A stretch of 64,000 bases of DNA from Escherichia phage vB_EcoM_DE17: sequence record OP595146.1, one strand, 5' to 3'. Of this stretch, positions 10,187 through 62,085 are shown piece by piece. Both the position numbers and the translations under genes were made by a program. The notes under the pieces are model-generated. The model had not been told where the DNA came from and ran no database searches. It saw only the letters and a list, made by a program, of their open reading frames with translations. Position 1 is the first letter of the stretch. The number at the start of each line of letters is the position of its first letter.

Positions 10187-10197
10187 AATATCTTAAG

Positions 10198-10226
10198 AGC
10201 CTCCTTAATTGGGGGCTTTTTAATTT
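10198..10226 (+). terminator. rho-independent terminator
   Basis: AGCCTCC-TTAATT-GGGGGCT hairpin (one G-U pair) followed by TTTTTAATTTTT. Confidence 0.5.
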
Positions 10227-10229
10227 TTA

Positions 10230-11785
10230 TAAAATTTATCGGTTGTCCCAACCTCTGGGTCACCATCATATGTGAATAAAAATATCTACCCTTCTTAACA
10301 ACCTCCTTAATCTTACTCTCTATATAGTTATATAGTACTATATAGTATCTTAGTATCTATCTAGTGGTCTTAATAGCCCCTCTGTATAGCCCTTCTAAAC
10401 ACTCTTCTAACAAGCCTTCTTAACAACCTATACAATCACATTAACCATCTCTCTATACCCTCTTAGAAGCTCCTATACACCTCTTAATCTCTAGGTTAGC
10501 TATGTTACCCTCTATAGGTGTTCACTAGGTATTACTAAGCCTCTATATAGACTGTTTTAACAAACTTAACAGGAATATCTTTACAGACCTTATCTCACAA
10601 GGTCTAACACGGTACTAACAAGGTATCTTATAAGCCTGTTTATGCCTGTATTTTTAAAAGACTGTCTAGGTAATTATTCAGAATTTTAAAATTTTTATAA
10701 AATAGGACTATCAAGTCGTTTTTTAGGGTCTTTGAAGGAACTGAAAAATATCTGTCTAGGATGTATATCTGCTTGGTAGCCCTTAACAGCTCCCTTACCA
10801 TCCCTTTGCAGAATTTTAAAATATCCTTAACAATCTCTTAATAGTTCTTACAACCTCTTAACATCTCTTCAGAGGTCTTAACAGATTCTTAACAGTTTTA
10901 ACAAGAGCTTAACAGTTTCTTAACAGTTGATACATAGGCTTTACAGAGTCTTAACAGATGACTAACAAGAGCTAACAAGTTAATTTTAAAGAGTTATTTT
11001 GTTAAGATAATTAACAAGTTCCTAACAAGTGTTTAACCTTTTTAACAAGCTATTAACATGGTCACAGTGGTTGTTTACAAACACAACTTATCTCTTTCTT
11101 ATCGTCCCCTTTCCCTCTTAGTGATTCTCTAAATAGCCCTCTTAAAAGCTCTCTATAGCCCCTTATAAGCTCTTTTAAGTCTCTTCCTAGTAATTACACC
11201 CCAACTATGTAGACACCTCTTTATAAGGCTTTACAGGAGCTTTTAAGGCTATGCTAAAGACTCTTACAAGGCTTTTACGTGGTCTTAACAGAGATTTAAC
11301 AAGGGGCTAACAAGTCTCTAACAAGCATAACTATGTAGGGATTGTTAAGAAATTGTTAAGAGAATGTTAAGGGGGCTAGCATTTACGTAACTTTATAGCC
11401 TCTTTTACGTAACTTTTAAGCCCCTATAACATACTTTTAAGACACTAACAAGCCCTTTTTAGATATTCACAAGATAACTAACGAGATGATAAAGCTTACA
11501 CCCTTATAAGATTCTTTTGAGGCTATAGGAAGCTTTATAAAGGGCTTTTTAGAGTGGGTTAATGCAATCCCTTAAGTTAGGTTGATAAGTCTGTTATAGG
11601 GCTTTATAGAGCGTTTAAATGGTTGCCCTTCCCTTTCGGGTTATGGGCTTTTATTTAAGTTGATTTGATAAGAGGTTATAGAGTAGACTATAGAGTTATT
11701 GTTTTTAAGGTACGAGATAGATTCTGTCGAATAAGTGGGATAGATTCTGGAAAGGAAAGGGATTGTATAGAGTCTATTACATAGA
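10230..11785. repeat. ORF-free, repeat-dense region with strand compositional skew
   Basis: No ORF of 60 aa or more in any frame across ~1.6 kb; plus strand pyrimidine-rich and G-poor around 10260-10560; many copies of CTTAACA(G/A), TAACAAG, CTTATAAG and CTTTTAAG, with inverted TTGTTAAG copies near 11340-11375. Confidence 0.7.
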
Positions 11786-11842
11786 CGTAAAAAAGCCCCT
11801 ATGAGAAAGGGGCTGTAAAGGTATCTGGGGCTATTTAGCCCC
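11786..11842 (-). terminator. tandem terminator hairpins closing the minus-strand small-gene array
   Basis: On the minus strand, GGGGCT-AAAT-AGCCCC then AGCCCCT-TTCTCAT-AGGGGCT followed by TTTTTT. Confidence 0.55.
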
Positions 11843-11852
11843 GTTGCGTCGA

Positions 11853-12491: not shown

Positions 12492-13022
12492 TTACAGACT
12501 TTTGATTGTCTCGTCAATATCTTTTTCAATTTCTCTTAAAGTTTTTTCTAAGTTCTTGATATTCAGCATTAACCCCTCTCCCAGTGTCTTAGCGTAACCA
12601 TTTGGGCGATGGTCATAAAGCTCGATTTCTTCCACTTCGTAAAGGCTGACATTGAAGCCCCCTACCCCGTAGGCTGTGGATGAAGTGCCTTCCGGTGCTT
12701 TGTAGTATTTATTGAGATTCTTTAAAGAGCGCTCGTAAGCCATACGATAACCGTTTAACACTGTTTTGGTGCAATCGCGTACACTTTCACACTGTGCCGC
12801 ATACTTTTCTAAGAACAGCGGGAGGAGTTCCGCTACCGCTTGCATGAAGTGACGAACAACGAAAGTAGACATATTACGGCGGTGAATGTAGAAAACACCC
12901 GTATCAGATTTAGTGATAGTTGCGAAATGTTCACCATTGCAACGGAATTCATAGGTATCTTTTACAGGCTTGGACATTACACGATTTGAACGAATGTAAT
13001 TGATTGCTTGAAACTTGTTCAT
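12492..13022 (-). CDS. hypothetical protein (array gene)
   Basis: 176-aa ORF preceded by the conserved cassette. Confidence 0.65.
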   Translation of the reverse strand: MNKFQAINYIRSNRVMSKPVKDTYEFRCNGEHFATITKSDTGVFYIHRRNMSTFVVRHFMQAVAELLPLFLEKYAAQCESVRDCTKTVLNGYRMAYERSLKNLNKYYKAPEGTSSTAYGVGGFNVSLYEVEEIELYDHRPNGYAKTLGEGLMLNIKNLEKTLREIEKDIDETIKSL

Positions 13023-13090
13023 TTTGAATCTCCAGTTTAGGATTTTATTTAGTGGGGGAAGTCATCCCCCGTTGATTAGTAATTTACTTG
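13023..13090 (-). promoter_or_regulatory. intergenic cassette type A
   Basis: Same hairpin plus initiation region; followed by ~150 nt of AT-rich spacer. Confidence 0.6.
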
Positions 13091-13238
13091 TTTTAATTTG
13101 TCTTTGCAAGCAATTTTTTAAGTTTATCTATAAAGAATCTTTTAAGTAAATCCCTTTTAGATAAACCCCCTCGAACAAATGTACTATTGTCAAGGGGTAT
13201 CGTCAAGTAATTTTTTAAAGTTTTTTATAAGTTATTGA

Positions 13239-13580
13239 TTAACTGATGAATATTTTTTCAGGTTTTACATAACTGATACGCTGGCTTTTTAGCAAGTCAT
13301 CCCAGATTAGCGCGGCAATGTGCCCATATCCGGCCTCACGTAACCCCTTCATCGTTTCAACTCGACTCTCAAAACGATTTGCGTAGTACTCGCTATTCAG
13401 TGTCGTTTTATTCCCTTCGTTATCTGTATGGATGATTTGCATTACCTGAAAGGGGCTTACATCCTCGCCTTTGTTCCACTGCTCAAAGTATTTTAGGCAC
13501 TGCATAGGTGACATCTTATCACTAACCTGAGTTGACCAAGATGAATTCTCTTTATCGGTAATTACAGTTACATAAGCCAT
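13239..13580 (-). CDS. hypothetical protein (array gene)
   Basis: 113-aa ORF preceded by the conserved cassette. Confidence 0.6.
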   Translation of the reverse strand: MAYVTVITDKENSSWSTQVSDKMSPMQCLKYFEQWNKGEDVSPFQVMQIIHTDNEGNKTTLNSEYYANRFESRVETMKGLREAGYGHIAALIWDDLLKSQRISYVKPEKIFIS

Positions 13581-13669
13581 TTTTGAATCTCCAGTTTAGG
13601 ACTTTGTTTAGTGGGGAAGTTCATTCCTTCCCCGTTGATTGACAATTTACAGATTTTTATCAGGCTTGT
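13581..13669 (-). promoter_or_regulatory. intergenic cassette type A variant
   Basis: GGGGAAG...CCTTCCCC hairpin plus the conserved initiation region. Confidence 0.55.
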
Positions 13670-13903
13670 CTAGTCTTTTTCAATGATAATTTCATATTGG
13701 CCGTCCACGCTGTCAAAATAGATACCGTCTTCATCTTCTGTCTTAAAGTAACATTGTATATCATCACTGGCGGGATAATCTTGCCTTGCTATCTGGCAAA
13801 CTTGAATAGCATTTTCTTTACTCCCTGTAAACTCCTCAAGCCCTTTAAAATCGCATGAATGACCGTTACAAATAGAAAGGATGAGATAAATGGTTGTCAA
13901 CAT
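13670..13903 (-). CDS. hypothetical small Cys-containing protein with hydrophobic N-terminus
   Basis: 77-aa ORF; N-terminal MLTTIYLILSICNGHSC looks like a signal peptide; a different hairpin (GCCCC-TACAA-GGGGC) lies upstream. Confidence 0.5.
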   Translation of the reverse strand: MLTTIYLILSICNGHSCDFKGLEEFTGSKENAIQVCQIARQDYPASDDIQCYFKTEDEDGIYFDSVDGQYEIIIEKD

Positions 13904-13969
13904 GATTTAAGCCCTCTAAAAGCCCCTACAAGGGGCTGATTAGTGTTTATAAGGTGATTGCATAGGTTT

Positions 13970-14512
13970 TTAGAAAAAGCTCTTTAAATCCTCTTCTGCA
14001 ATGTTTCCTGTCAGTGTATCCATGATGTCACAAAAAACCTGAATACTGTCTGACTGTTGAACACTTTTAGCGAGAAGCTCCAGAGACTCATCAAGACAGT
14101 TTAAATTTGGGTTATCCAGTGAAGGAAGACAAAAAGGTGAAAACATAGCGTTAAACTCTGTTGTATAGACCTTTTTAATCCAATTTACATCAAAGTACTC
14201 TGTAAAACTTGCTAAACTCGACATATTATCACAAGAATAATCATCATTTAGCTCATCCTCTGGAATATCGAGTTCTAAGATAACAATATTTTGGGTTTTC
14301 ATCTGGAAAGCTGCGGTGATAGTGGCATTTCCTAGAGCTTGTTGGATACCTTCTGATGCTATTTCTTCCTCATCGTCGCCATAGATTTTATTTTCTGGAT
14401 ACACGTAAAAATTGCCGTCCATATCCGAACAATTCCATGCGCCTGATGGTTTATCACCGTTATTAATCAGGTTGATGAAGTTTTCTTGAGTAGTTCCGTG
14501 ATAGCATTTCAT
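13970..14512 (-). CDS. strongly acidic hypothetical protein (array gene)
   Basis: 180 aa; D/E-rich runs (DDEEE, EDELNDD, EEDL) with few basic residues. Confidence 0.65.
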   Translation of the reverse strand: MKCYHGTTQENFINLINNGDKPSGAWNCSDMDGNFYVYPENKIYGDDEEEIASEGIQQALGNATITAAFQMKTQNIVILELDIPEDELNDDYSCDNMSSLASFTEYFDVNWIKKVYTTEFNAMFSPFCLPSLDNPNLNCLDESLELLAKSVQQSDSIQVFCDIMDTLTGNIAEEDLKSFF

Positions 14513-14597
14513 TTTTGAATCTCCAGTTTAGGATTTAGTGGTAAAGCTCTTTATCTGGGGCTTACTTTATCGAACTATAAGCCCCTTGTAAAGTACT
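14513..14597 (-). promoter_or_regulatory. intergenic cassette type B
   Basis: GGGGCTTA...TAAGCCCC hairpin plus the same initiation region; near-identical copies at 15308 and 17169, variant at 16790. Confidence 0.6.
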
Positions 14598-14801
14598 TTA
14601 ACGATTATTTTTGACAACTTTTAAAACTGCAAGATAACCTAAGCAATAAGAATCACCGAAGAGAGTTCTACCCATGAAAGAATCCTCTTTGATATCCTTT
14701 GCAGTGACAGTTTTTTCTACGCCGTGGGAAAGGACTACATCCCCAACTTTGATGTCTTTGATGTGTGTTGTTTCAATGGTTAAGCCGTTAATATTAGCCA
14801 T
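14598..14801 (-). CDS. hypothetical small protein (array gene)
   Basis: 67-aa ORF preceded by the cassette. Confidence 0.55.
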   Translation of the reverse strand: MANINGLTIETTHIKDIKVGDVVLSHGVEKTVTAKDIKEDSFMGRTLFGDSYCLGYLAVLKVVKNNR

Positions 14802-14878
14802 TTTAGAATCTCCTAGTTTAAGGATTTTACTTAGTGGGGAAGGTCATTCCCTCCCCGTTGATGAGTAATTTAATCTAT
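14802..14878 (-). promoter_or_regulatory. intergenic cassette type A
   Basis: GGGGAAGG...CCCTCCCC hairpin plus initiation region. Confidence 0.55.
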
Positions 14879-14902
14879 CTAGAAATCAATGTCAACAGTT
14901 TT

Positions 14903-15307
14903 TTAGAGTTCTGCGTAAATTGCGTCACAAATATCACGAAAATCATGATTTGTTAAATTACGTTGCAACCATGTTGCAAAAAAGTCAGCAATTGCAAAAT
15001 TTGCGTCATACTCGACAGATAGCCACACTTTCACGGCAAAACGAAACATTTTTAAATCAAGCTCTTTATTCATTACCTTTGATTTGCCTAACATGTCAGC
15101 CATTTCATATTGTGCACCGTCTAGCGTGATACCTGCTGCAACGTCAGCCAATGAGTTTTTTACACTTTCAACGTCTAAGATAACACTTTGAATCTTCCCG
15201 ATAATATTGTGCAATGTCTCATCAGGTGCTGATGATGTAATAACATTAATCCGGTTAACGGTTAAACGTGCTTTTAAGATTGATAACTCACGGTTATTAA
15301 TAGTCAT
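14903..15307 (-). CDS. hypothetical protein (array gene)
   Basis: 134-aa ORF preceded by the cassette. Confidence 0.6.
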   Translation of the reverse strand: MTINNRELSILKARLTVNRINVITSSAPDETLHNIIGKIQSVILDVESVKNSLADVAAGITLDGAQYEMADMLGKSKVMNKELDLKMFRFAVKVWLSVEYDANFAIADFFATWLQRNLTNHDFRDICDAIYAEL

Positions 15308-15392
15308 TTTAGAATCTCCAATTTAGGATTTAGTGGTAAAGCTCTTTATCTGGGGCTTACTTTATCGAACTATAAGCCCCTTGTAAAGTACT
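15308..15392 (-). promoter_or_regulatory. intergenic cassette type B
   Basis: Near-identical to the copy at 14513..14597. Confidence 0.6.
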
Positions 15393-15665
15393 TTATACTA
15401 AATGCAGCTTTTTACCTTTTACTATGATGTAACTTGATGCGCTATTGCCGCATACATCTTGATAAATTCTGCGCAAACGGCCTTCGTAGTGGACTTTCCA
15501 GCTAGTTGGAATCTTTTTCCCGTATCCGGTAGCAGTTTTTTGGAGTCCTGCTACTTGCCAATCTAAGATATGTTGCTCAGCTTGTAAATCTTCAAAGTGC
15601 ATCACACCATCAACATAGTGACGTAGAGTGACATTTAAAGTACGACCGTTGTTAGTAGTATACAT
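15393..15665 (-). CDS. hypothetical protein (array gene)
   Basis: 90-aa ORF preceded by the conserved initiation region. Confidence 0.55.
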   Translation of the reverse strand: MYTTNNGRTLNVTLRHYVDGVMHFEDLQAEQHILDWQVAGLQKTATGYGKKIPTSWKVHYEGRLRRIYQDVCGNSASSYIIVKGKKLHLV

Positions 15666-15688
15666 TTTTGAATCTCCTAGTTTAAGGC

Positions 15689-15847
15689 TTATTTTGACAG
15701 TTCACTAATTAAGACATCAAAGATTATATCATTATCTGCTACAGTTGCAACACCAGTGATATAATCAATTTCTAAGATAACAACAACTTTCGTACATAAA
15801 CCGTCATCTATATCATTCCAGACAACTTTATCACCTGCACAAAACAT
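15689..15847 (-). CDS. hypothetical small protein (52 aa, below the ORF-track cutoff)
   Basis: Hand-translated MFCAGDKVVWNDIDDGLCTKVVVILEIDYITGVATVADNDIIFDVLISELSK; has the same conserved initiation region at its 5' end and the cassette core follows its stop. Confidence 0.45.
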   Translation of the reverse strand: MFCAGDKVVWNDIDDGLCTKVVVILEIDYITGVATVADNDIIFDVLISELSK

Positions 15848-15920
15848 TTTTTGAGTCTCCTAGTTTAAGGACTTTACTTAGTGGGGAAGGTTATTCCCTC
15901 CCCGTTGATGTGTAATTTAG
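15848..15920 (-). promoter_or_regulatory. intergenic cassette type A
   Basis: GGGGAAGG...CCCTCCCC hairpin plus initiation region. Confidence 0.55.
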
Positions 15921-15938
15921 TCTATCTAAAAACCAGTG

Positions 15939-16271
15939 TCAACAGTTTTGTTTTCGTTTGCTCAATTCTTGAACAATTACAGCGTAGTAGTCTTTTAAGT
16001 CACTGATATTTAAAGCATTTATCAGAGAATTATAATCATCGACTAACTGGAAATCATCCTTGAAGATGTCACTTATCTGATAGGTTTTCGCTTTGAATCT
16101 GAAGCTCATCTCTAGCCGCTTTATTTGCTCATCACTGAGACGCCCTAGAAAGCTCTCTACAAGGTTATTGCTAACCTGCTGTGTGATTGCCTTATTTGCT
16201 AGATTATAGGCTTTATATGCCTTATATAGCGCTAAAATGGCAATGATTGCAGTGATACCAGTCATTAACAT
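15939..16271 (-). CDS. hypothetical membrane-anchored protein (array gene)
   Basis: 110 aa; hydrophobic N-terminus MLMTGITAIIAILALY; start overlaps the upstream gene (no cassette). Confidence 0.55.
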   Translation of the reverse strand: MLMTGITAIIAILALYKAYKAYNLANKAITQQVSNNLVESFLGRLSDEQIKRLEMSFRFKAKTYQISDIFKDDFQLVDDYNSLINALNISDLKDYYAVIVQELSKRKQNC

Positions 16272-16561
16272 GGTGTTTCCTCTTTACGTGATACTTTGCC
16301 ATTTACAGTTATCTCATAGGATTCTAATAAATCGCTTTTAGACTTTACAGGGCTTTTGAAAGTATCATCATAGATATTGACTTGTAATACAGGTTTTTTA
16401 TATTCCCTGCAACTATTCCATAAGCAAATCACTACACGACGGCCTTTGATTTTTCCGTGTAACCATTCCATAACATCATGACTATTCCTTGATGTCTCGA
16501 TAAAATCGATTTTGTTGAGTAACTTGCTTAAATTTTCACGGACTTTATTTGATAATTTCAT
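16265..16561 (-). CDS. hypothetical protein (array gene)
   Basis: 98-aa ORF; conserved initiation region overlaps the stop of the gene upstream. Confidence 0.55.
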   Translation of the reverse strand: MKLSNKVRENLSKLLNKIDFIETSRNSHDVMEWLHGKIKGRRVVICLWNSCREYKKPVLQVNIYDDTFKSPVKSKSDLLESYEITVNGKVSRKEETPC

Positions 16562-16576
16562 TTTTGAATCTCCAGT

Positions 16577-16789
16577 TTAGGATAAAATAGTAATCGTAAA
16601 ATTGTAATGACCATTAAGCTGATAAACATAACAGTTAGAGAATACACCAACTAACCGAGGTTTTCCATAAATTTTCATGCGCTCTTTAATCTCTTTGAGA
16701 GATTTCAAACCTGTAAGGTCTTTATTGAAATAGTCATCATCTGTGAATAGGACTTGTGAGGCGGTTTTCAGTTTTTGATTAATGTTCAT
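16577..16789 (-). CDS. hypothetical small protein (array gene)
   Basis: 70-aa ORF preceded by the cassette. Confidence 0.5.
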   Translation of the reverse strand: MNINQKLKTASQVLFTDDDYFNKDLTGLKSLKEIKERMKIYGKPRLVGVFSNCYVYQLNGHYNFTITILS

Positions 16790-16877
16790 TTTTGAATCTC
16801 CAGTTTAGGATTTAGTGGTAAAGCTCTTTATCTGGGGCTTAAGATACCAACTTTTAAGCCCCCTGTAAAGTACTTTA
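16790..16877 (-). promoter_or_regulatory. intergenic cassette type B variant
   Basis: GGGGCTTAA...TTAAGCCCC hairpin plus initiation region. Confidence 0.55.
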
Positions 16878-17168
16878 TCAGTTAATTTTCAGCTTTGCAT
16901 GACCTCTCATTGTACGAATGGGGGATGTTAAGGCTACGCGTCTAATATATGCCTTTTTCGTGTGTACATTTGCCTTCCCGATAGTGTTTACACATGTAAA
17001 AAGGTTTATTGGTGAATTTTTTAACTTCAACTGTCTATCAGTCTTCACGCCCCATCTTACAGCAGATTGTTTTCCGTTGTCAACCACTTTCCCGCCTAAC
17101 TTTTTCGCCATAATACGAGCGTCATCACGAGTTTTTGCAGGAATTACAACGTTTTTGATAATAGCCAT
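16878..17168 (-). CDS. hypothetical basic protein (array gene; start set by cassette)
   Basis: The track ORF extends 5 codons into the cassette; the ATG at 17166-17168 sits at the conserved position (MAIIKNVVIPAKTRDDARIMAKKLGG...). Confidence 0.55.
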   Translation of the reverse strand: MAIIKNVVIPAKTRDDARIMAKKLGGKVVDNGKQSAVRWGVKTDRQLKLKNSPINLFTCVNTIGKANVHTKKAYIRRVALTSPIRTMRGHAKLKIN

Positions 17169-17256
17169 TTTTAAGTTCTCCAATTTAGGATTTAGTGGTA
17201 AAGCTCTTTATCTGGGGCTTACTTTATCGAACTATAAGCCCCTTGTAAAGTACTTT
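17169..17256 (-). promoter_or_regulatory. intergenic cassette type B
   Basis: Near-identical to copies at 14513 and 15308. Confidence 0.6.
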
Positions 17257-17637
17257 TTATTTAATTTTGAAGATTGTCACGTAGCCATCACTGCCGATGA
17301 TTTGTGATACCCCAGCTTTTTCTACTTGATAGCCCATATTTTCCAGATGATAGATAGCATCGTCATAACCATATGCACCGCCCTGATAACGTCGCTTATC
17401 ACATCTTACTAAAACCTTTCCACGTCCTGCCAGTGCATTTAGTACAGCTTTTTCACTTGATAGCGTACCATCTATCATGGTTGCCGTGTAATGGTTGATT
17501 TTATTCCCGTTGATATCATACTTGAAATTGAACGAGTGAACAACGATAACGTTACCTTTAAAATTCTCATCAAGTGACTTCTCCAGTGCGTTGCGAAAGT
17601 TGTCTTTATTGATGAATTTAGGTGCACGGTATGCCAT
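17257..17637 (-). CDS. hypothetical protein (first gene of the array)
   Basis: 126-aa ORF preceded by a cassette. Confidence 0.6.
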   Translation of the reverse strand: MAYRAPKFINKDNFRNALEKSLDENFKGNVIVVHSFNFKYDINGNKINHYTATMIDGTLSSEKAVLNALAGRGKVLVRCDKRRYQGGAYGYDDAIYHLENMGYQVEKAGVSQIIGSDGYVTIFKIK

Positions 17638-17705
17638 TTTAGAATCTCCTAGTTTAAGGTTAGTTATTTAGTGGGGAAGGTTATTCCCTCTCCGTTGATG
17701 CAAAT
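17638..17705 (-). promoter_or_regulatory. intergenic cassette type A (most upstream copy)
   Basis: GGGGAAGG...CCCTCTCC hairpin plus initiation region, at the head of the array. Confidence 0.55.
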
Positions 17706-17853
17706 ATTAGATAACCATAGCCAAAGAGTCAAGAAAAATTTTAAAAATATTTTTGAAAAAACTGTAATGGAACGGGCGCACGCGACTACCACAAAACAGA
17801 ACTACAATCAAGAATTATTTTTCAATCCGCTACAAATTTTTCTCTTGACTTTT

Positions 17854-17884
17854 GGGGAGAGGGGGAGTAAGAGGGGAAGAGGGG
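17854..17884 (+). other. G-quadruplex-forming motif (four G4-5 runs)
   Basis: GGGGAGAGGGGGAGTAAGAGGGGAAGAGGGG on the plus strand, in otherwise AT-rich intergenic DNA. Confidence 0.5.
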
Positions 17885-17908
17885 CTTGGCTGGCTATCTA
17901 TAAAAACC

Positions 17909-18086
17909 TACCTGCACAATTCTAAAATGATTTTTCTTGCCCGACCTGAGCGGGGTCTGCACGTTTTGAAAATGAAAAAGCTCTTTGGAGATTACCTGCA
18001 CAATTTGAAAATGAATTTTCTCTTTGGAGTTCAAAATTATCTCTACAGATTTCTCTACAGAACTCTACCTGCACAATCCTAAAATG
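17909..18086 (+). repeat. three direct repeats of ACCTGCACAAT-NNN-AAAATGA
   Basis: Copies at about 17909, 17994 and 18066, spaced 72-85 bp apart; too few and too imperfect for CRISPR. Confidence 0.5.
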
Positions 18087-18160
18087 AAAAAACCCTCCTT
18101 ACCTGAAAAATTTAACAGATAAGAAAGGTTTAGCCTATTGTGAATATTCTACAGAGTTTC

Positions 18161-18946
18161 TTAGTTCTTTGCGTCTAAGAAGGTAACTTCTTGTGATGAG
18201 AAAATCTCCTCGATATCCTCATCAGTTCTTGCATAGATATAAGTATCTGCATCACTGCCAAATGTTACTGCAATCCTGTGATTGCTCTTCGACAGGTGGG
18301 TAACTAGAGCGTTACTTAGAGACATCTTTTCAACCGGAGGGTTACTTTGATGTATCTTGCCTTTTCTTCGTCTGAAGAGGGTAACTGCATCATCAGTGAA
18401 CGTTACTACACCTGCAAAGTATTCTGGTTCACAGTAGTTCTTCCAACCTGAGAGTAACTTGTGGTACAACTCTCCTTCGTAGACATATAGATAAACATCT
18501 ACACTCTTCATCACCTGATTAATGATAACGGTGACGGCTTGAGGGTCTAGTCCACCGATACCTGCACCAATCATAGGTAACCCAACTTTCTTCAACTGAT
18601 TAACTTCACAGTACCTGTTAAGCTGTTTCAAAGATGATTCTAAAGCACTGTATCGGGCATCTTTACCAGTCTTAAGCTGAGTGTAAAGGTTAGCTATACG
18701 GCCTTGTTTTAAACGTGCTACAGAGAAATTACCTAGTAAGTTCTCACAGGGCTTGTGGCCTATGCCACCTGCATACAGATAAACTTCTGTATCAGTCTCA
18801 TATGCTTTTGGGTAAAGTTTAGAAATCTTGTCAGCGATACCTGCACCCATTAAATTCATACAGTTGCAACCGTGACCAATGACGTCAAACTTACCTTTAT
18901 CAAATGCGGCAAAGATATCACCATTGATGATTTTTATAATACCCAT
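18161..18946 (-). CDS. macro-domain (ADP-ribose-binding/processing) protein with C-terminal extension
   Basis: 261 aa; N-terminal IINGDIF...DVIGHGCNCMNLMGAGIA and later GLPMIGAGIGGLDP follow the macro-domain pattern (G-D-I-x, H/N-x-x-N-x-x-x-G-x-G-I-A, second Gly-rich loop). Recalled pattern, not a search hit. Confidence 0.6.
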   Translation of the reverse strand: MGIIKIINGDIFAAFDKGKFDVIGHGCNCMNLMGAGIADKISKLYPKAYETDTEVYLYAGGIGHKPCENLLGNFSVARLKQGRIANLYTQLKTGKDARYSALESSLKQLNRYCEVNQLKKVGLPMIGAGIGGLDPQAVTVIINQVMKSVDVYLYVYEGELYHKLLSGWKNYCEPEYFAGVVTFTDDAVTLFRRRKGKIHQSNPPVEKMSLSNALVTHLSKSNHRIAVTFGSDADTYIYARTDEDIEEIFSSQEVTFLDAKN

Positions 18947-19147
18947 TTAACATCTCTCCCAAGATTCTTTATCTTCTGAAGGTTTTACACGCTGCCCTTC
19001 GTGGTCTACCCAGATGCACCCACAACCTTCACAGATTACTGGCATTGCATAGCCAGCTTTAAAGTCATCTTCAGTGATAAGACCCTTTAAGTCACCTGTA
19101 TCACGTCCGAACATTTCGATAGCACAGTCTTTGCAGAAGTCAGCCAT
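18947..19147 (-). CDS. small Cys-rich zinc-ribbon-like protein
   Basis: 66 aa with C-x-x-C ... C-x-G-C-G-C; translationally coupled to the macro-domain gene. Confidence 0.5.
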   Translation of the reverse strand: MADFCKDCAIEMFGRDTGDLKGLITEDDFKAGYAMPVICEGCGCIWVDHEGQRVKPSEDKESWERC

Positions 19148-19373
19148 GAATAATTACCTCTTGAGTGATGATGCCTTTACCACAGCGACTTTTAAAGTCT
19201 CCTAATGGTTCAGAGAAGAAGTCACGGAAATGGTTACTGCACTCACGTTTCATCACCTTCTTGTAAGTTAACACATCTTCTCCTGTAAACGGGACGACTT
19301 CATGTCTCCCTTTGAATACTGCTGAACTTACAATCTTACGTGTCTTTTTATCTCTGGCTAGTATTACTTTCAT
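19140..19373 (-). CDS. hypothetical protein
   Basis: 77-aa ORF. Confidence 0.5.
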   Translation of the reverse strand: MKVILARDKKTRKIVSSAVFKGRHEVVPFTGEDVLTYKKVMKRECSNHFRDFFSEPLGDFKSRCGKGIITQEVIIHG

Positions 19374-19713
19374 AGTTTACCTTCTCAGTTAGCTCATATA
19401 AATCAACATGCTCAAGACTATCAATGTTGATACCAATCTTTTTGAAGCGTTCTATCACTTCGTTGTCAGTCATCCATATCAGACACCAATGATTGTGGAT
19501 GGATTCTTCAAGAAGGTCAACACAATCTTTAAAAGTTTTTGTATCACTTCTTGTTCCGACTACTGCGATTGTCCCATACAACCACTTACCATTACCATAA
19601 GATACTTGTGCTACGCCAACTTCTTTATCTTTCTCGTAGTAAACGGCTACAAAGTCTCTTCCATTAATCTGCATTTGTAAGTTCCTCTGTTGGTAATTCA
19701 CCATTTTCAGCAA
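19348..19713 (-). CDS. hypothetical protein (start may be the internal ATG at 19674)
   Basis: 121-aa ORF; 50-nt overlap with the upstream gene if the longest start is used. Confidence 0.5.
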   Translation of the reverse strand: MLKMVNYQQRNLQMQINGRDFVAVYYEKDKEVGVAQVSYGNGKWLYGTIAVVGTRSDTKTFKDCVDLLEESIHNHWCLIWMTDNEVIERFKKIGINIDSLEHVDLYELTEKVNYESNTSQR

Positions 19714-60909: not shown

Positions 60910-62085
60910 TTAAGCTGTTCTCTGCCACACATATACTACAAAAGATGGCTGCTCAACACTGAAAGCTTGACCACCACCAACAGAACCAGATGTCCCTGAG
61001 TGTGTATGCTCAGAGCTAGAAACAGTAACAGTGCCCGTATGACTGTGTGAACCAATATTGACAGTGTGGCTGTGAGCACCAATTGCAACAGTATGACTAT
61101 GAGCACCAGATGATGCAGTTGTACCTGAGAAGCTATGGGTGTGAGCACCAGCTAAGTCAGTATATGAAGCATTACCAACCCCAGCATCAGCAGATGCGGT
61201 AATAGCATTTGACCCACTTCTATCATTACCCCTCAGAGGTACTCTATGGTTGTGGTTACCAGCATTACTTGTCGTTCCACTAAATGTGTGGGTGTGAGCA
61301 CCAGCACTGTTAGTTGCCTTCGTACCGTAGTCAAAAGTTGATGTACTCTTTGAACCATAATCAAAACTAGAGATAGATACACTTGCAGAGTGTGTATGAC
61401 CACCCCCTGTTAGATAGATAGAGTGAGTATGTGCTGGTAAATTGTTATTTGTCAATACTACAGTCTGAGAACCAAAAGTTGAACCAACAGGTCTAGAATC
61501 TGTATCATAACCAACCAGTGCTCTACCTTTAGAAACTAACTCCCAAGTACCTCCACAAAGCAAGTAAGTGGATGGGTTGGCAGAGTTAACAGATAGGTGA
61601 ATAGTCCCTACTGGATATGATGCTTGAATAGCTTTGTATAAATTATTCACTGCTCTCGCGGTAGCGTACTTATCAGCATCTTCATTGTACAGATTAGATG
61701 TTGTCCAGTTCTGAACATTACTTAAACCTACCTGTGCTTTCGTTGTATTGTGTGGGTTACTTTTGTCGTCAATATGTTGCTGAATTGAGTTATTCACTTC
61801 TTCTGACGACATAATTTGTAGATTTGCTCTTGCCTCAGCAACATTCACAATGTCTGACAAGTTATTGGCTGCAACTAATTGGAGAGAGTTAATAACATTA
61901 TCAAGACCCACTTGTGATTTAGTTACACCATGAGGATTATTCCTCAGAGATGCGTGAGGTGCTAACAACTGTTCAAGCGTACATCTTTTATCCTCAACAC
62001 CTTGCTTAAGGTGGAAGATATCACTTAAATCAACTGGTAAGGCCGCTTGTGGCAAGGCACTAATTTGAATTTCACCTACTGCCAT
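60910..62085 (-). CDS. tail fibre protein (paralogous His-rich tip)
   Basis: 391 aa; N-terminal NPH..TK.QVGL.NV repeats typical of phage fibres; C-terminal HTHS/HSHTV boxes and ending similar to the 785-aa fibre. Confidence 0.8.
   Translation of the reverse strand: MAVGEIQISALPQAALPVDLSDIFHLKQGVEDKRCTLEQLLAPHASLRNNPHGVTKSQVGLDNVINSLQLVAANNLSDIVNVAEARANLQIMSSEEVNNSIQQHIDDKSNPHNTTKAQVGLSNVQNWTTSNLYNEDADKYATARAVNNLYKAIQASYPVGTIHLSVNSANPSTYLLCGGTWELVSKGRALVGYDTDSRPVGSTFGSQTVVLTNNNLPAHTHSIYLTGGGHTHSASVSISSFDYGSKSTSTFDYGTKATNSAGAHTHTFSGTTSNAGNHNHRVPLRGNDRSGSNAITASADAGVGNASYTDLAGAHTHSFSGTTASSGAHSHTVAIGAHSHTVNIGSHSHTGTVTVSSSEHTHSGTSGSVGGGQAFSVEQPSFVVYVWQRTA

Follow-up and report, generated by a model that had tools for sequence, protein, structure and literature searches.

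What is the role of a gene-free, repeat-bearing gap in the early region of a Felix O1-like phage? We addressed this question for positions 17638-18160 of a 64,000-nucleotide stretch (the window) of Escherichia phage vB_EcoM_DE17 (OP595146.1), in which a sequence-only reading had described a G-quadruplex (G4) motif and three direct repeats in an AT-rich intergenic stretch, and had suggested a control region or a small RNA locus. The stretch is AT-rich and intergenic as described. It separates a macro-domain gene (18161-18946; Pfam Macro, PHROG "phosphatase") from a gene for a protein of 126 amino acids (aa; 17257-17637), which is the first member of an array of small early genes. Both genes are on the minus strand, and minus-strand genes occupy the window from ~10 kb to 48 kb. 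The window represents a Felixounavirus: the 526 bases around the repeats are 99.8% identical to Escherichia phage KEP3 and show 92-98% identity to many Felixounavirus genomes, with 289 matching records, including Felix O1, wV8 and UAB_Phi87.

The gap forms a compound module with boundary and control functions, set between two successive early units that are both transcribed in the minus direction, and its repeats are more important than the G-run tract. The proposal of a control region was broadly right: the gap holds the terminator t13, a sigma70-type promoter with a leader cassette, and a divergent promoter-like site on the plus strand, and its conservation equals or exceeds that of the adjacent coding sequence. 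The sequence comparisons support the view that this is a real and strongly conserved control region. The repeat array is conserved, unique in the genome and not annotated as such; the database records give assorted "hypothetical proteins" or nothing at this place. No description of the array was found for Felix O1, wV8 or UAB_Phi87, or in the other literature searched.

Architecture and conservation of the repeat array

The three repeats first noticed are real and occur exactly at 17910-17929, 17994-18013 and 18067-18086, but the array contains four copies, the fourth being a diverged one at 17955-17974 with three mismatches to the original pattern. The suggested spacing of ~75 bp did not hold, the three exact copies being 84 and 73 nucleotides (nt) apart, and the repeat of ~21 nt was too short a description. 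The conserved unit is longer and has a two-part core, reading W5-TCATTTY-N5-YGTGCAG(GT) on the minus strand, where W5 is an A5 or T5 tract and N5 is variable. All units have the same orientation, and their start-to-start spacing in the window is irregular (73, 39 and 45 nt). The core is without dyad symmetry, with its two blocks located ~13 bp apart from centre to centre.

A profile hidden Markov model (HMM) built from 66 distinct units of many phages identified four units in the window with E-values between 6e-8 and 8.5e-6, while the next match had an E-value of 1.9. Unit a (18067-18092, minus; TTTTT-TCATTTT-AGGAT-TGTGCAGGT; E = 8.5e-6) matches the original pattern exactly and is kept in all relatives. 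Unit b (17994-18019, minus; AAAAT-TCATTTT-CAAAT-TGTGCAGGT; E = 6e-8) and unit c (17955-17980, minus; TTTTT-TCATTTT-CAAAA-CGTGCAGAC; E = 1.8e-7) are both preceded by CTCCAAAGAG, and unit c, which is the copy missed by the sequence-only reading, is located at the same place in all relatives. Unit d (17910-17935, minus; AAAAA-TCATTTT-AGAAT-TGTGCAGGT; E = 2.6e-6) is preceded by AGGTCGGGCAAG, which is common to the units of Erwinia phages. The flanks of the units are homogenised within each lineage and different between lineages, and the 5-nt tract ahead of each core is A5 or T5 interchangeably. Such interchangeability would fit a readout of DNA shape better than a readout of RNA bases.

In the complete 87-kb genome of UAB_Phi87, the same profile recovered exactly four units and nothing else, with a clean score gap. 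A genome-wide promoter or regulator motif was ruled out, since the core is found only at the array. No host or plasmid homologues of the array were found. A single-core pattern scan of viral contigs gave chance matches only, and the two-core pattern was found in the Ounavirinae, in one uncultured relative (L187) and in coding repeats of tail-fibre-like genes. Comparison by eye with the consensus sequences for sigmaE, sigma32, the MarA box, Ter and LexA gave no fit to the core. The 21-nt cores are separated by 52, 18 and 24 nt, and the sequences in these gaps are kept between phages; such unequal, phage-conserved gaps do not fit a CRISPR-like mini-array, which has identical repeats and uniform spacers of ~30-36 nt. 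Four tandem sigma70 promoters on the plus strand were also considered, as two Erwinia phage units read TTGCCA-17-TAAAAT/GAAAAT, and were ruled out by the spacing of 25 nt in the Felix-type phages and by the best-conserved block, CTGCAC, which would be placed in the spacer.

Between the window phage and its Moogle- and SUSP-type relatives the gap is 76-84% identical, as compared to 69-72% nucleotide identity for the macro genes and 62-67% at their fourfold degenerate sites. Judged from the aligned sequences, the gap shows purifying selection. The array is kept across the genera of the Ounavirinae, in phages of E. coli, Salmonella and Erwinia as well as in an uncultured relative, with three to five units in every lineage examined, and the cores are invariant down to Erwinia phage phiEa104, the macro protein of which is only 36% identical. 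Unit spacing is 75/41/45 nt in Moogle-type loci and 37/37/39 nt, head to tail, in Erwinia phages including phiEa104, and relatives differ by indels of 2, 4 and 10 nt in the array region.

We tentatively favour the interpretation, which we hold at somewhat less than even confidence, that a single sequence-specific protein binds duplex DNA at the four units, which would be its tandem sites within a boundary module of a terminator and divergent promoters. The asymmetric two-part core, the interchangeable A5 and T5 tracts, the single genomic location and the concerted evolution of the units argue for binding of a protein to DNA, as do the lack of conserved RNA structure outside the terminator, of any Rfam match and of a coding signal (see below).

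The same comparisons bear on the idea that the array is without function, with units b-d being decaying duplications of the t13 tail, that is, slipped copies kept by chance or recombination. The first half of unit a is the t13 U-tract, the homogenised flanks suggest duplication or gene conversion, and the number of units varies from three to five. Set against this, the cores do not vary across genera whose proteins share only 36-64% identity, the conservation of the gap exceeds that of the fourfold degenerate sites of the neighbouring gene, and the GTGCAG block, which is the most conserved part of the unit, has no role in termination. We consider a functionless array improbable.

The uncultured relative L187 (IMGVR_UViG_3300045988_063805, 88 kb) contains at 450-1200 a macro gene of 148 aa, similar to T4 Tk.4, followed by four to five units with a period of 36-38 nt, about a dozen TTAACA repeats and a promoter; it is a distant relative that, apart from this macro gene, gave no match to the collection of cultured phages. 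In Felix O1-type phages the two repeat types lie 6.5 kb from each other, and in this contig they are neighbours. Another metagenome contig (L018) is chimeric, with phage sequence passing into E. coli-like DNA within the spacer between units c and d (~4010-4198). A Felix O1-type region of 94% identity is present in GU169904 ("Staphylococcus phage SA1", 147 kb) at 128687-129009 and in one "Campylobacter" record, both of which are probably chimeric or mislabelled.

The long spacer between units a and b also contains two adjacent 12-nt direct repeats, TCTCTACAGAtt (18040-18063, plus), with a third copy at 18148-18158. These repeats, which read TCTCTACAGA on the minus strand, are kept in Felixounavirus and partly in Moogle-type loci.

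The terminator and the promoters of the gap

The Rho-independent terminator t13 of the rIIA...macro-domain operon is located at 18081-18131 on the minus strand and consists of a 16-bp stem (18131-18090) and a U-tract. For the minus-strand hairpin, after which UUUUUUCAUUUU (U6CAU4) follows, the predicted energy is -20.1 kcal/mol (z = -5.0), whereas the plus-strand hairpin reaches only -7.7 kcal/mol (z = -1.4) and has no U-tract. These folds show that t13 would terminate minus-strand transcription only. The stem contains compensatory and G-U changes across relatives, and the U-tract doubles as the 5' part of repeat unit a. A simple terminator scan missed t13, which has a loop of 10 nt, but it is listed in the Felix O1 genome paper (PMC3185647) and annotated in wV8, ASO1A and XTG1. 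The macro gene corresponds to ORF13 of Felix O1, the expression of which peaks 5 min after infection (PMC3185647).

The 3' arm of t13 (AGGTAAGGAGGGC, 18090-18105 on the minus strand and equivalent positions) is invariant in relatives, while the 5' arm co-varies or is replaced; the 3' arm is more conserved than a hairpin arm requires. It holds a perfect Shine-Dalgarno sequence, TAAGGAGG, the complement of which, CCUCCUUA, equals the 3' end of 16S rRNA.

The early sigma70-type promoter of the first small gene, P(-), was identified on the minus strand at 17704-17765, with the hexamers TTGACT (17732-17727) and TAATAT (17709-17704) separated by 17 nt and an A/T tract upstream. In a consensus scan it matched 9 of the 12 consensus positions, with A at -11 and T at -7, and a promoter is annotated at the equivalent place in phage ASO1A. 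Located ~350 bp past the terminator, P(-) restarts transcription for the small-gene array. The leader of the 126-aa gene (17638-17700, minus) contains a hairpin cassette, CATCAACGGAGAGGGAATAACCTTCCCCAC (17700-17671), followed by GGAG and the start codon ATG (17637). This cassette occurs three times in the window (14834-14863, 15881-15910 and 17671-17700), each time upstream of a small minus-strand gene; its hairpin reads CATCAACGGrGAGGGAATrACCTTCCCCAC, and copies are annotated as DR_1 to DR_9 in wV8. The plus strand of the leader cassettes yields spurious "GTG MGKVIPSPLM..." open reading frames (ORFs).

A promoter-like site on the plus strand, P(+), is located at 17833-17873, with an A/T tract, TTGACT (17845-17850), a 17-nt spacer, TAAGAG (17868-17873) and a predicted start at ~17880. 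It is an inverted copy of the -35/UP cassette of P(-) (17839-17850, plus), placed ~110 bp upstream of P(-) within a conserved block of ~110 nt, and faces t13. The -35 hexamer of P(+) is invariant in 14 aligned relatives. The spacer, the -10 and the +1 are formed by the G-run tract in the window and by an unrelated segment of about the same length (allele B, see below) in over half of the relatives. In allele B, P(+) reads TTGACT-N17-TAGCCT with TGn ahead of the second hexamer, and its hexamers are invariant while the spacer is variable, as is typical of a functional promoter. Erwinia phages (Kolesnikvirus) have TTGACC/TTGACG-N18-TATACT at the equivalent place, with 10 of the 12 consensus positions for the TTGACC form and a diverged spacer. 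Both the allele-B and the Erwinia phage sites have the A at -11 and the T at -7. A promoter pointing into the repeat array from the side of the early promoter thus appears to be a conserved feature. No plus-strand gene was seen in the ~30 kb downstream of P(+), so that any product would be noncoding and antisense.

A second, weak promoter-like site on the minus strand (17783-17811; TTGATT-N17-TAGTCG) was read from the sequence and the alignment and was not called by the consensus scan. Relatives keep TTGAYT and, in the second hexamer, the TA, but position -7 is a G. The site is located in a conserved block (17760-17845) that also contains a GC box, CGCGTGCGCCCG.

The G-run tract and its alternative allele

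The G-run tract is exactly as the sequence-only reading described it: GGGGAGAGGGGGAGTAAGAGGGGAAGAGGGG at 17854-17884 on the plus strand, with G runs of 4, 5, 4 and 4 and loops of 3, 7 and 4 nt, which make up a canonical intramolecular G4 motif. It is the sole (G>=3 N1-7)x4 motif on either strand of the window, as compared to 0.017 expected per window from first-order Markov simulations, and 0 of 300 simulations produced a motif in which all four runs had 4 G or more. When the single strand was folded with the G-quadruplex energies of ViennaRNA, which are derived from RNA, the G4 was predicted at -23.2 to -23.8 kcal/mol, versus -1.3 (DNA) or -7.3 kcal/mol (RNA) without it. The minus strand of the tract is C-rich and G-poor.

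A segment of ~50 nt exists here as two alleles, and the tract represents one of them. Allele A, which contains the tract, was found in 112 public records, and allele B, an unrelated segment of about the same length, in 140. The allele-A genomes of Felix-, Moogle- and SUSP-type phages retain four runs of 3 or more G despite substitutions and indels, and because the pattern survives in three genera the tract is not random filler. Nevertheless, it is dispensable for the phage, since more records carry the unrelated replacement than keep the tract. A G4 as the key element of the locus is therefore not supported. In the Erwinia phages, only three runs of at least 3 G were found, ~100 nt from P(+). 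We infer that the tract is an optional variant of the P(+) core that may form a G4 or other non-B DNA. Like the promoter G4s of c-MYC (nuclease-hypersensitive element III1, NHE III1) and of bacteria, it has four G-runs on the non-template strand over the spacer, the -10 and the +1, but it differs from them in being one of two interchangeable alleles in an AT-rich phage, with a G4 that is predicted only.

Assembly breaks and the genome end

Several independent assemblies of phages with the G-tract allele stop at the tract or at most 40 nt from it, as compared to 0 of ~12 allele-B loci. Two of them (L009 and L010) break off at one and the same position of the tract, after which L010 runs into Nextera adapter sequence, and a third (L023) ends 37 nt beyond that position. 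L033 (EC106) starts in the tract, L040 (Andreotti) starts just beside it, and L035 (KhF1) is of low quality on one side of it. Taken at face value, these breaks would place a physical genome end, or a packaging signal within a direct terminal repeat (DTR), at the tract. However, both record ends of phage Ro111lw carry a 613-bp DTR defined by PhageTerm (PMC6454146), which maps to 10,775-11,376 of the window. In UAB_Phi87, for which a DTR of 608 bp and Bal31-sensitive SpeI fragments of 4322 and 2819 bp have been reported (PMC4837284), the only SpeI interval of the genome that accommodates these fragments is 13014-19582, which holds the DTR region. Also, a second copy of the repeat region was found in only 1 of 232 records (KhF1, with overlapping record ends). 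A genome end at the tract is scarcely credible and, for Felixounavirus, is ruled out decisively by the position of the Ro111lw repeat and additionally by the in silico SpeI map of UAB_Phi87. The breaks are best read as failures of sequencing or assembly at the G-run tract, where non-B DNA may form, with a physical discontinuity in virion DNA as the less likely alternative; they provide indirect evidence that the tract is troublesome for polymerases. In Erwinia phage BoyaciRG1 (L207/L208, OR125561), an exact terminal redundancy of 1232 bp covers the repeat units together with the end of the macro gene, and is probably an assembly overlap and not a true terminal repeat.

By homology to Ro111lw, the virion DTR would be located at ~10,775-11,376, inside another gene-free gap of 1.67 kb (10187-11852), where a block of plus-strand genes meets the minus-strand small-gene array in convergent orientation. 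This gap contains ~25 copies of a repeat with an 11-bp period, CTTAACAG/TCTTAACA, in both orientations. A separate 27-nt tandem repeat with 2.7 copies was identified at 61037-61108 of the window (Tandem Repeats Finder score 81).

Counted from the DTR, a terminal block of 7 kb contains small early genes only, transcribed toward the virion end, and the array and the G-tract lie at its inner edge; the gene-free gap is 6.9-7.4 kb, ~8% of the genome, from the end of the DTR. P(+) is the only other plus-strand site in this block with the early-promoter -35/UP cassette, and it faces inward. It is conceivable, though highly improbable, that the array and the tract act as a checkpoint for DNA entry, either as a pause or stop signal during ejection, as in the first-step transfer of T5, or as a T7-like start of internalisation driven by RNA polymerase, with the four units binding a factor that would hold or release the DNA. 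The likeness to the T5 region is positional only, and consists of a terminal block of ~8%, small early genes, strong sigma70 promoters and a gene-free, repeat-bearing inner edge. The T5 DTR is 10 kb long, whereas that of Felix O1 is 0.6 kb, and no DnaA boxes are present in the array region. The literature searches gave no account of two-step DNA transfer for Felix O1-like phages.

Coding capacity

The 76-aa ORF across the repeats on the plus strand, which had been judged unlikely to be real, is not a gene: it has no PHROG or Pfam match, and neither its frame nor its extent is kept in relatives. ORFs are annotated here in several GenBank records, among them minus-strand ORFs of 46-55 aa (wV8 gene 13, Moogle115, Phi87_49/50), and a small protein encoded across the repeats on either strand would also be consistent with an ATG of allele B that lies near the predicted start of P(+) and opens the same frame through three units, and with one Arg codon difference between Erwinia and Felix units (AGA/CGA) that is synonymous. 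In contrast, all flanking genes belong to PHROG or Pfam families, whereas the ORF does not. Start, stop and frame differ between lineages, the indels of 2, 4 and 10 nt fall in the region, and there is no Shine-Dalgarno sequence. Furthermore, the third codon positions of the core never vary, while the "codons" of the spacers change freely. A protein-coding array can thus hardly be correct. Mini-ORFs ending at GTGCAGG-TAG/TAA were ruled out because the frame differs in the Erwinia phages.

Possible protein binding and functions at the RNA level

The minus-only intrinsic terminator t13 ends the rIIA...macro-domain operon, and P(-) with its repeated leader cassette restarts transcription for the small-gene array. 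If the four asymmetric units of one orientation, located between P(+) and t13, are protein-binding sites on DNA, they would be bound by one protein in the manner of iterons or an operator array. The occupied array could then separate the terminator from the opposing promoter as an insulator or roadblock, keeping read-through from the early promoters, and could also gate an antisense transcript from P(+).

Several observations weigh against this interpretation. The core matches no consensus for DnaA, IHF, Fis, CRP, sigma54, boxA or Chi, none of these sites nor the T7 primase site is enriched, and an asymmetric core with blocks ~13 bp apart is unusual for a DNA-binding dimer. The units are irregularly spaced, with shifts of 2 nt from one lineage to another, which makes cooperative phased binding unlikely. 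The units are located at ~+30 to +210 from P(+), while operators usually overlap their promoter. In the window, the -10 of P(+), TAAGAG, lies inside the G-tract, is without the T at -7 and was not called by the consensus scan, so that the activity of this site is uncertain. Reverse transcription PCR data for Felix O1 are not strand-specific and their coverage lies outside the gap (PMC3185647). Finally, a conserved promoter firing into the array fits a function at the RNA level equally well.

In such an RNA-level function, P(+) would produce a noncoding plus-strand RNA, the first ~210 nt of which contain the four units (ACCUGCAC-N6-RAAAUGA-W5) as linear motifs for an RNA-binding protein or nuclease. 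The RNA might serve as a decoy or sponge, for example by titrating a translational repressor of AUG-containing start regions, or as an anti-defence mimic like the pseudo-ToxI of PhiTE. Taken together, these variants are possible, if on the unlikely side, and the small RNA locus suggested by the sequence-only reading is likewise possible. They are consistent with the conserved hexamers and variable spacer of the promoter that aims at the array in allele-B Felixounavirus and in Erwinia phages, with the lack of a plus-strand gene downstream, and with the single orientation and tolerated irregular spacing of the units. The head-to-tail units of the Erwinia phages (37/37/39 nt) are within the size range of type III antitoxin repeats, and unit d contains AUUCUAAAAUG, which is identical to the start region of the 126-aa gene.

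The RNA analyses point the other way. Searches of the window with Rfam covariance models at the gathering threshold identified two tRNAs only, and in the array region only chance matches were obtained at E-values up to 10. The window contains tRNA genes for Glu-UUC and Pro-UGG side by side at 119-280 (minus), which are part of a Felix O1-type tRNA cluster. RNAalifold analysis of 14 diverse sequences gave no conserved secondary structure outside the terminator on the minus strand and none on the plus strand, where the consensus was -8 kcal/mol with a covariation term of +0.27. A structured small RNA is ruled out by these results, that is, by the lack of an Rfam match and of covariation on either strand outside the terminator. 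Nor is there a plus-strand terminator, the t13 hairpin being weak and without a U-tract in this direction; the T at -7 is missing from P(+) in the window, and no P(+) was evident in L187. An 11-nt complement prompted the idea of an antisense regulator of the start regions of the small genes, which was ruled out: the complementary 5-nt segment is the variable part of the unit and does not track the gene start regions. The same lack of co-variation counts against the titration of a repressor of such regions.

Two of the nearest known systems can be compared here. In lambda, pO/OOP opposite cII resembles P(+) in being a sigma70-type promoter that faces the 3' end of an early operon and gives a noncoding antisense product. 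However, the OOP RNA is short, has a terminator of its own and lacks internal repeats, whereas P(+) has no terminator on its strand and would transcribe a conserved repeat array, the sequence-level conservation of which exceeds what antisense pairing alone needs. ToxI and the pseudo-ToxI of PhiTE, like the array, consist of tandem direct units of ~36-40 nt in noncoding phage DNA. There is a short, tentative resemblance between GTGCAGGTAGAGTTC here and GTGCAGCTAGAAATTC in ToxI, with ~13 of 16 nt identical, judged on the first 21 nt of ToxI. As a whole, the ToxI array contains 5.5 repeats of 36 nt. It has a constant period, a pseudoknot and a toxin gene, whereas the array in the window has spacings of 73/39/45 nt and no conserved fold, its period is not constant in the Felix-type phages and nearly so in the Erwinia phages only, and no ToxN-like or other toxin gene was noted beside it, although no specific search was made. 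The order of elements also differs, being promoter, repeats, terminator and toxin in ToxI, but gene, terminator and repeats on the ToxI-like (minus) strand of the window.

A possible replication origin

The units could also be iterons of a replication origin, in which the divergent promoters and the A/T-rich tract between them would provide transcriptional activation and an unwinding element. As part of this proposal, the G-rich non-template strand of allele A would favour opening of the duplex through an R-loop or non-B DNA, in the manner of ColE1, T4 ori(uvsY) and mitochondrial conserved sequence block II (CSBII). The array is a unique cluster of asymmetric repeats of one orientation, its four units providing the three or more direct repeats of a 17-22-bp site expected of an iteron origin, with A/T tracts and divergent promoters alongside and the G-tract directly downstream of P(+) on the non-template strand. 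The annotation of Felix O1 lists DNA polymerase, primase/helicase and ligase, and names no initiator or origin (PMC3185647). The origin iterons of lambda ori, P1 oriR, F/RepE and R6K/pi are likewise clustered, asymmetric sites of ~20 bp in one orientation near A/T-rich DNA and promoters, and their flanks evolve in concert, as in the array.

Those iterons are contiguous, however, with a period of 19-22 bp, whereas the units described here are irregularly spaced at 37-77 bp across lineages, and the 73/39/45 nt of the window do not follow a period of ~21-22 bp. No DnaA box or IHF site was found above background, and no initiator gene was recognised next to the array, where the macro-domain gene and the small genes are located. 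The G-rich allele is missing from over half of the relatives, and the GC skew reflects the orientation of the genes without adding a signal of its own. The repeat-dense gap of 1.67 kb at 10.2-11.9 kb is at least as good a candidate. An origin at the array is therefore unlikely. Each of the known systems considered here shares some features with the locus but fails at least one defining test.

Implications for Felix O1-like phages

Felix O1-like phages, a classic choice for typing and biocontrol, are represented by hundreds of sequenced genomes. The genome paper of Felix O1 states that the timing of transcription is not known (PMC3185647), and no transcriptome of a Felix O1-like phage was found in our literature searches. 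For genome annotation, the spurious ORFs in the gap should be removed, and assembly breaks at the G-tract can be mistaken for a genome end. The two alleles at the core of P(+), a G4 tract and an ordinary extended -10 promoter, represent a natural experiment on a promoter-embedded G4 in a bacterial virus. Identification of the partner of the TCATTTY-N5-YGTGCAG core would open a first route into the control of early genes or the replication of this subfamily.

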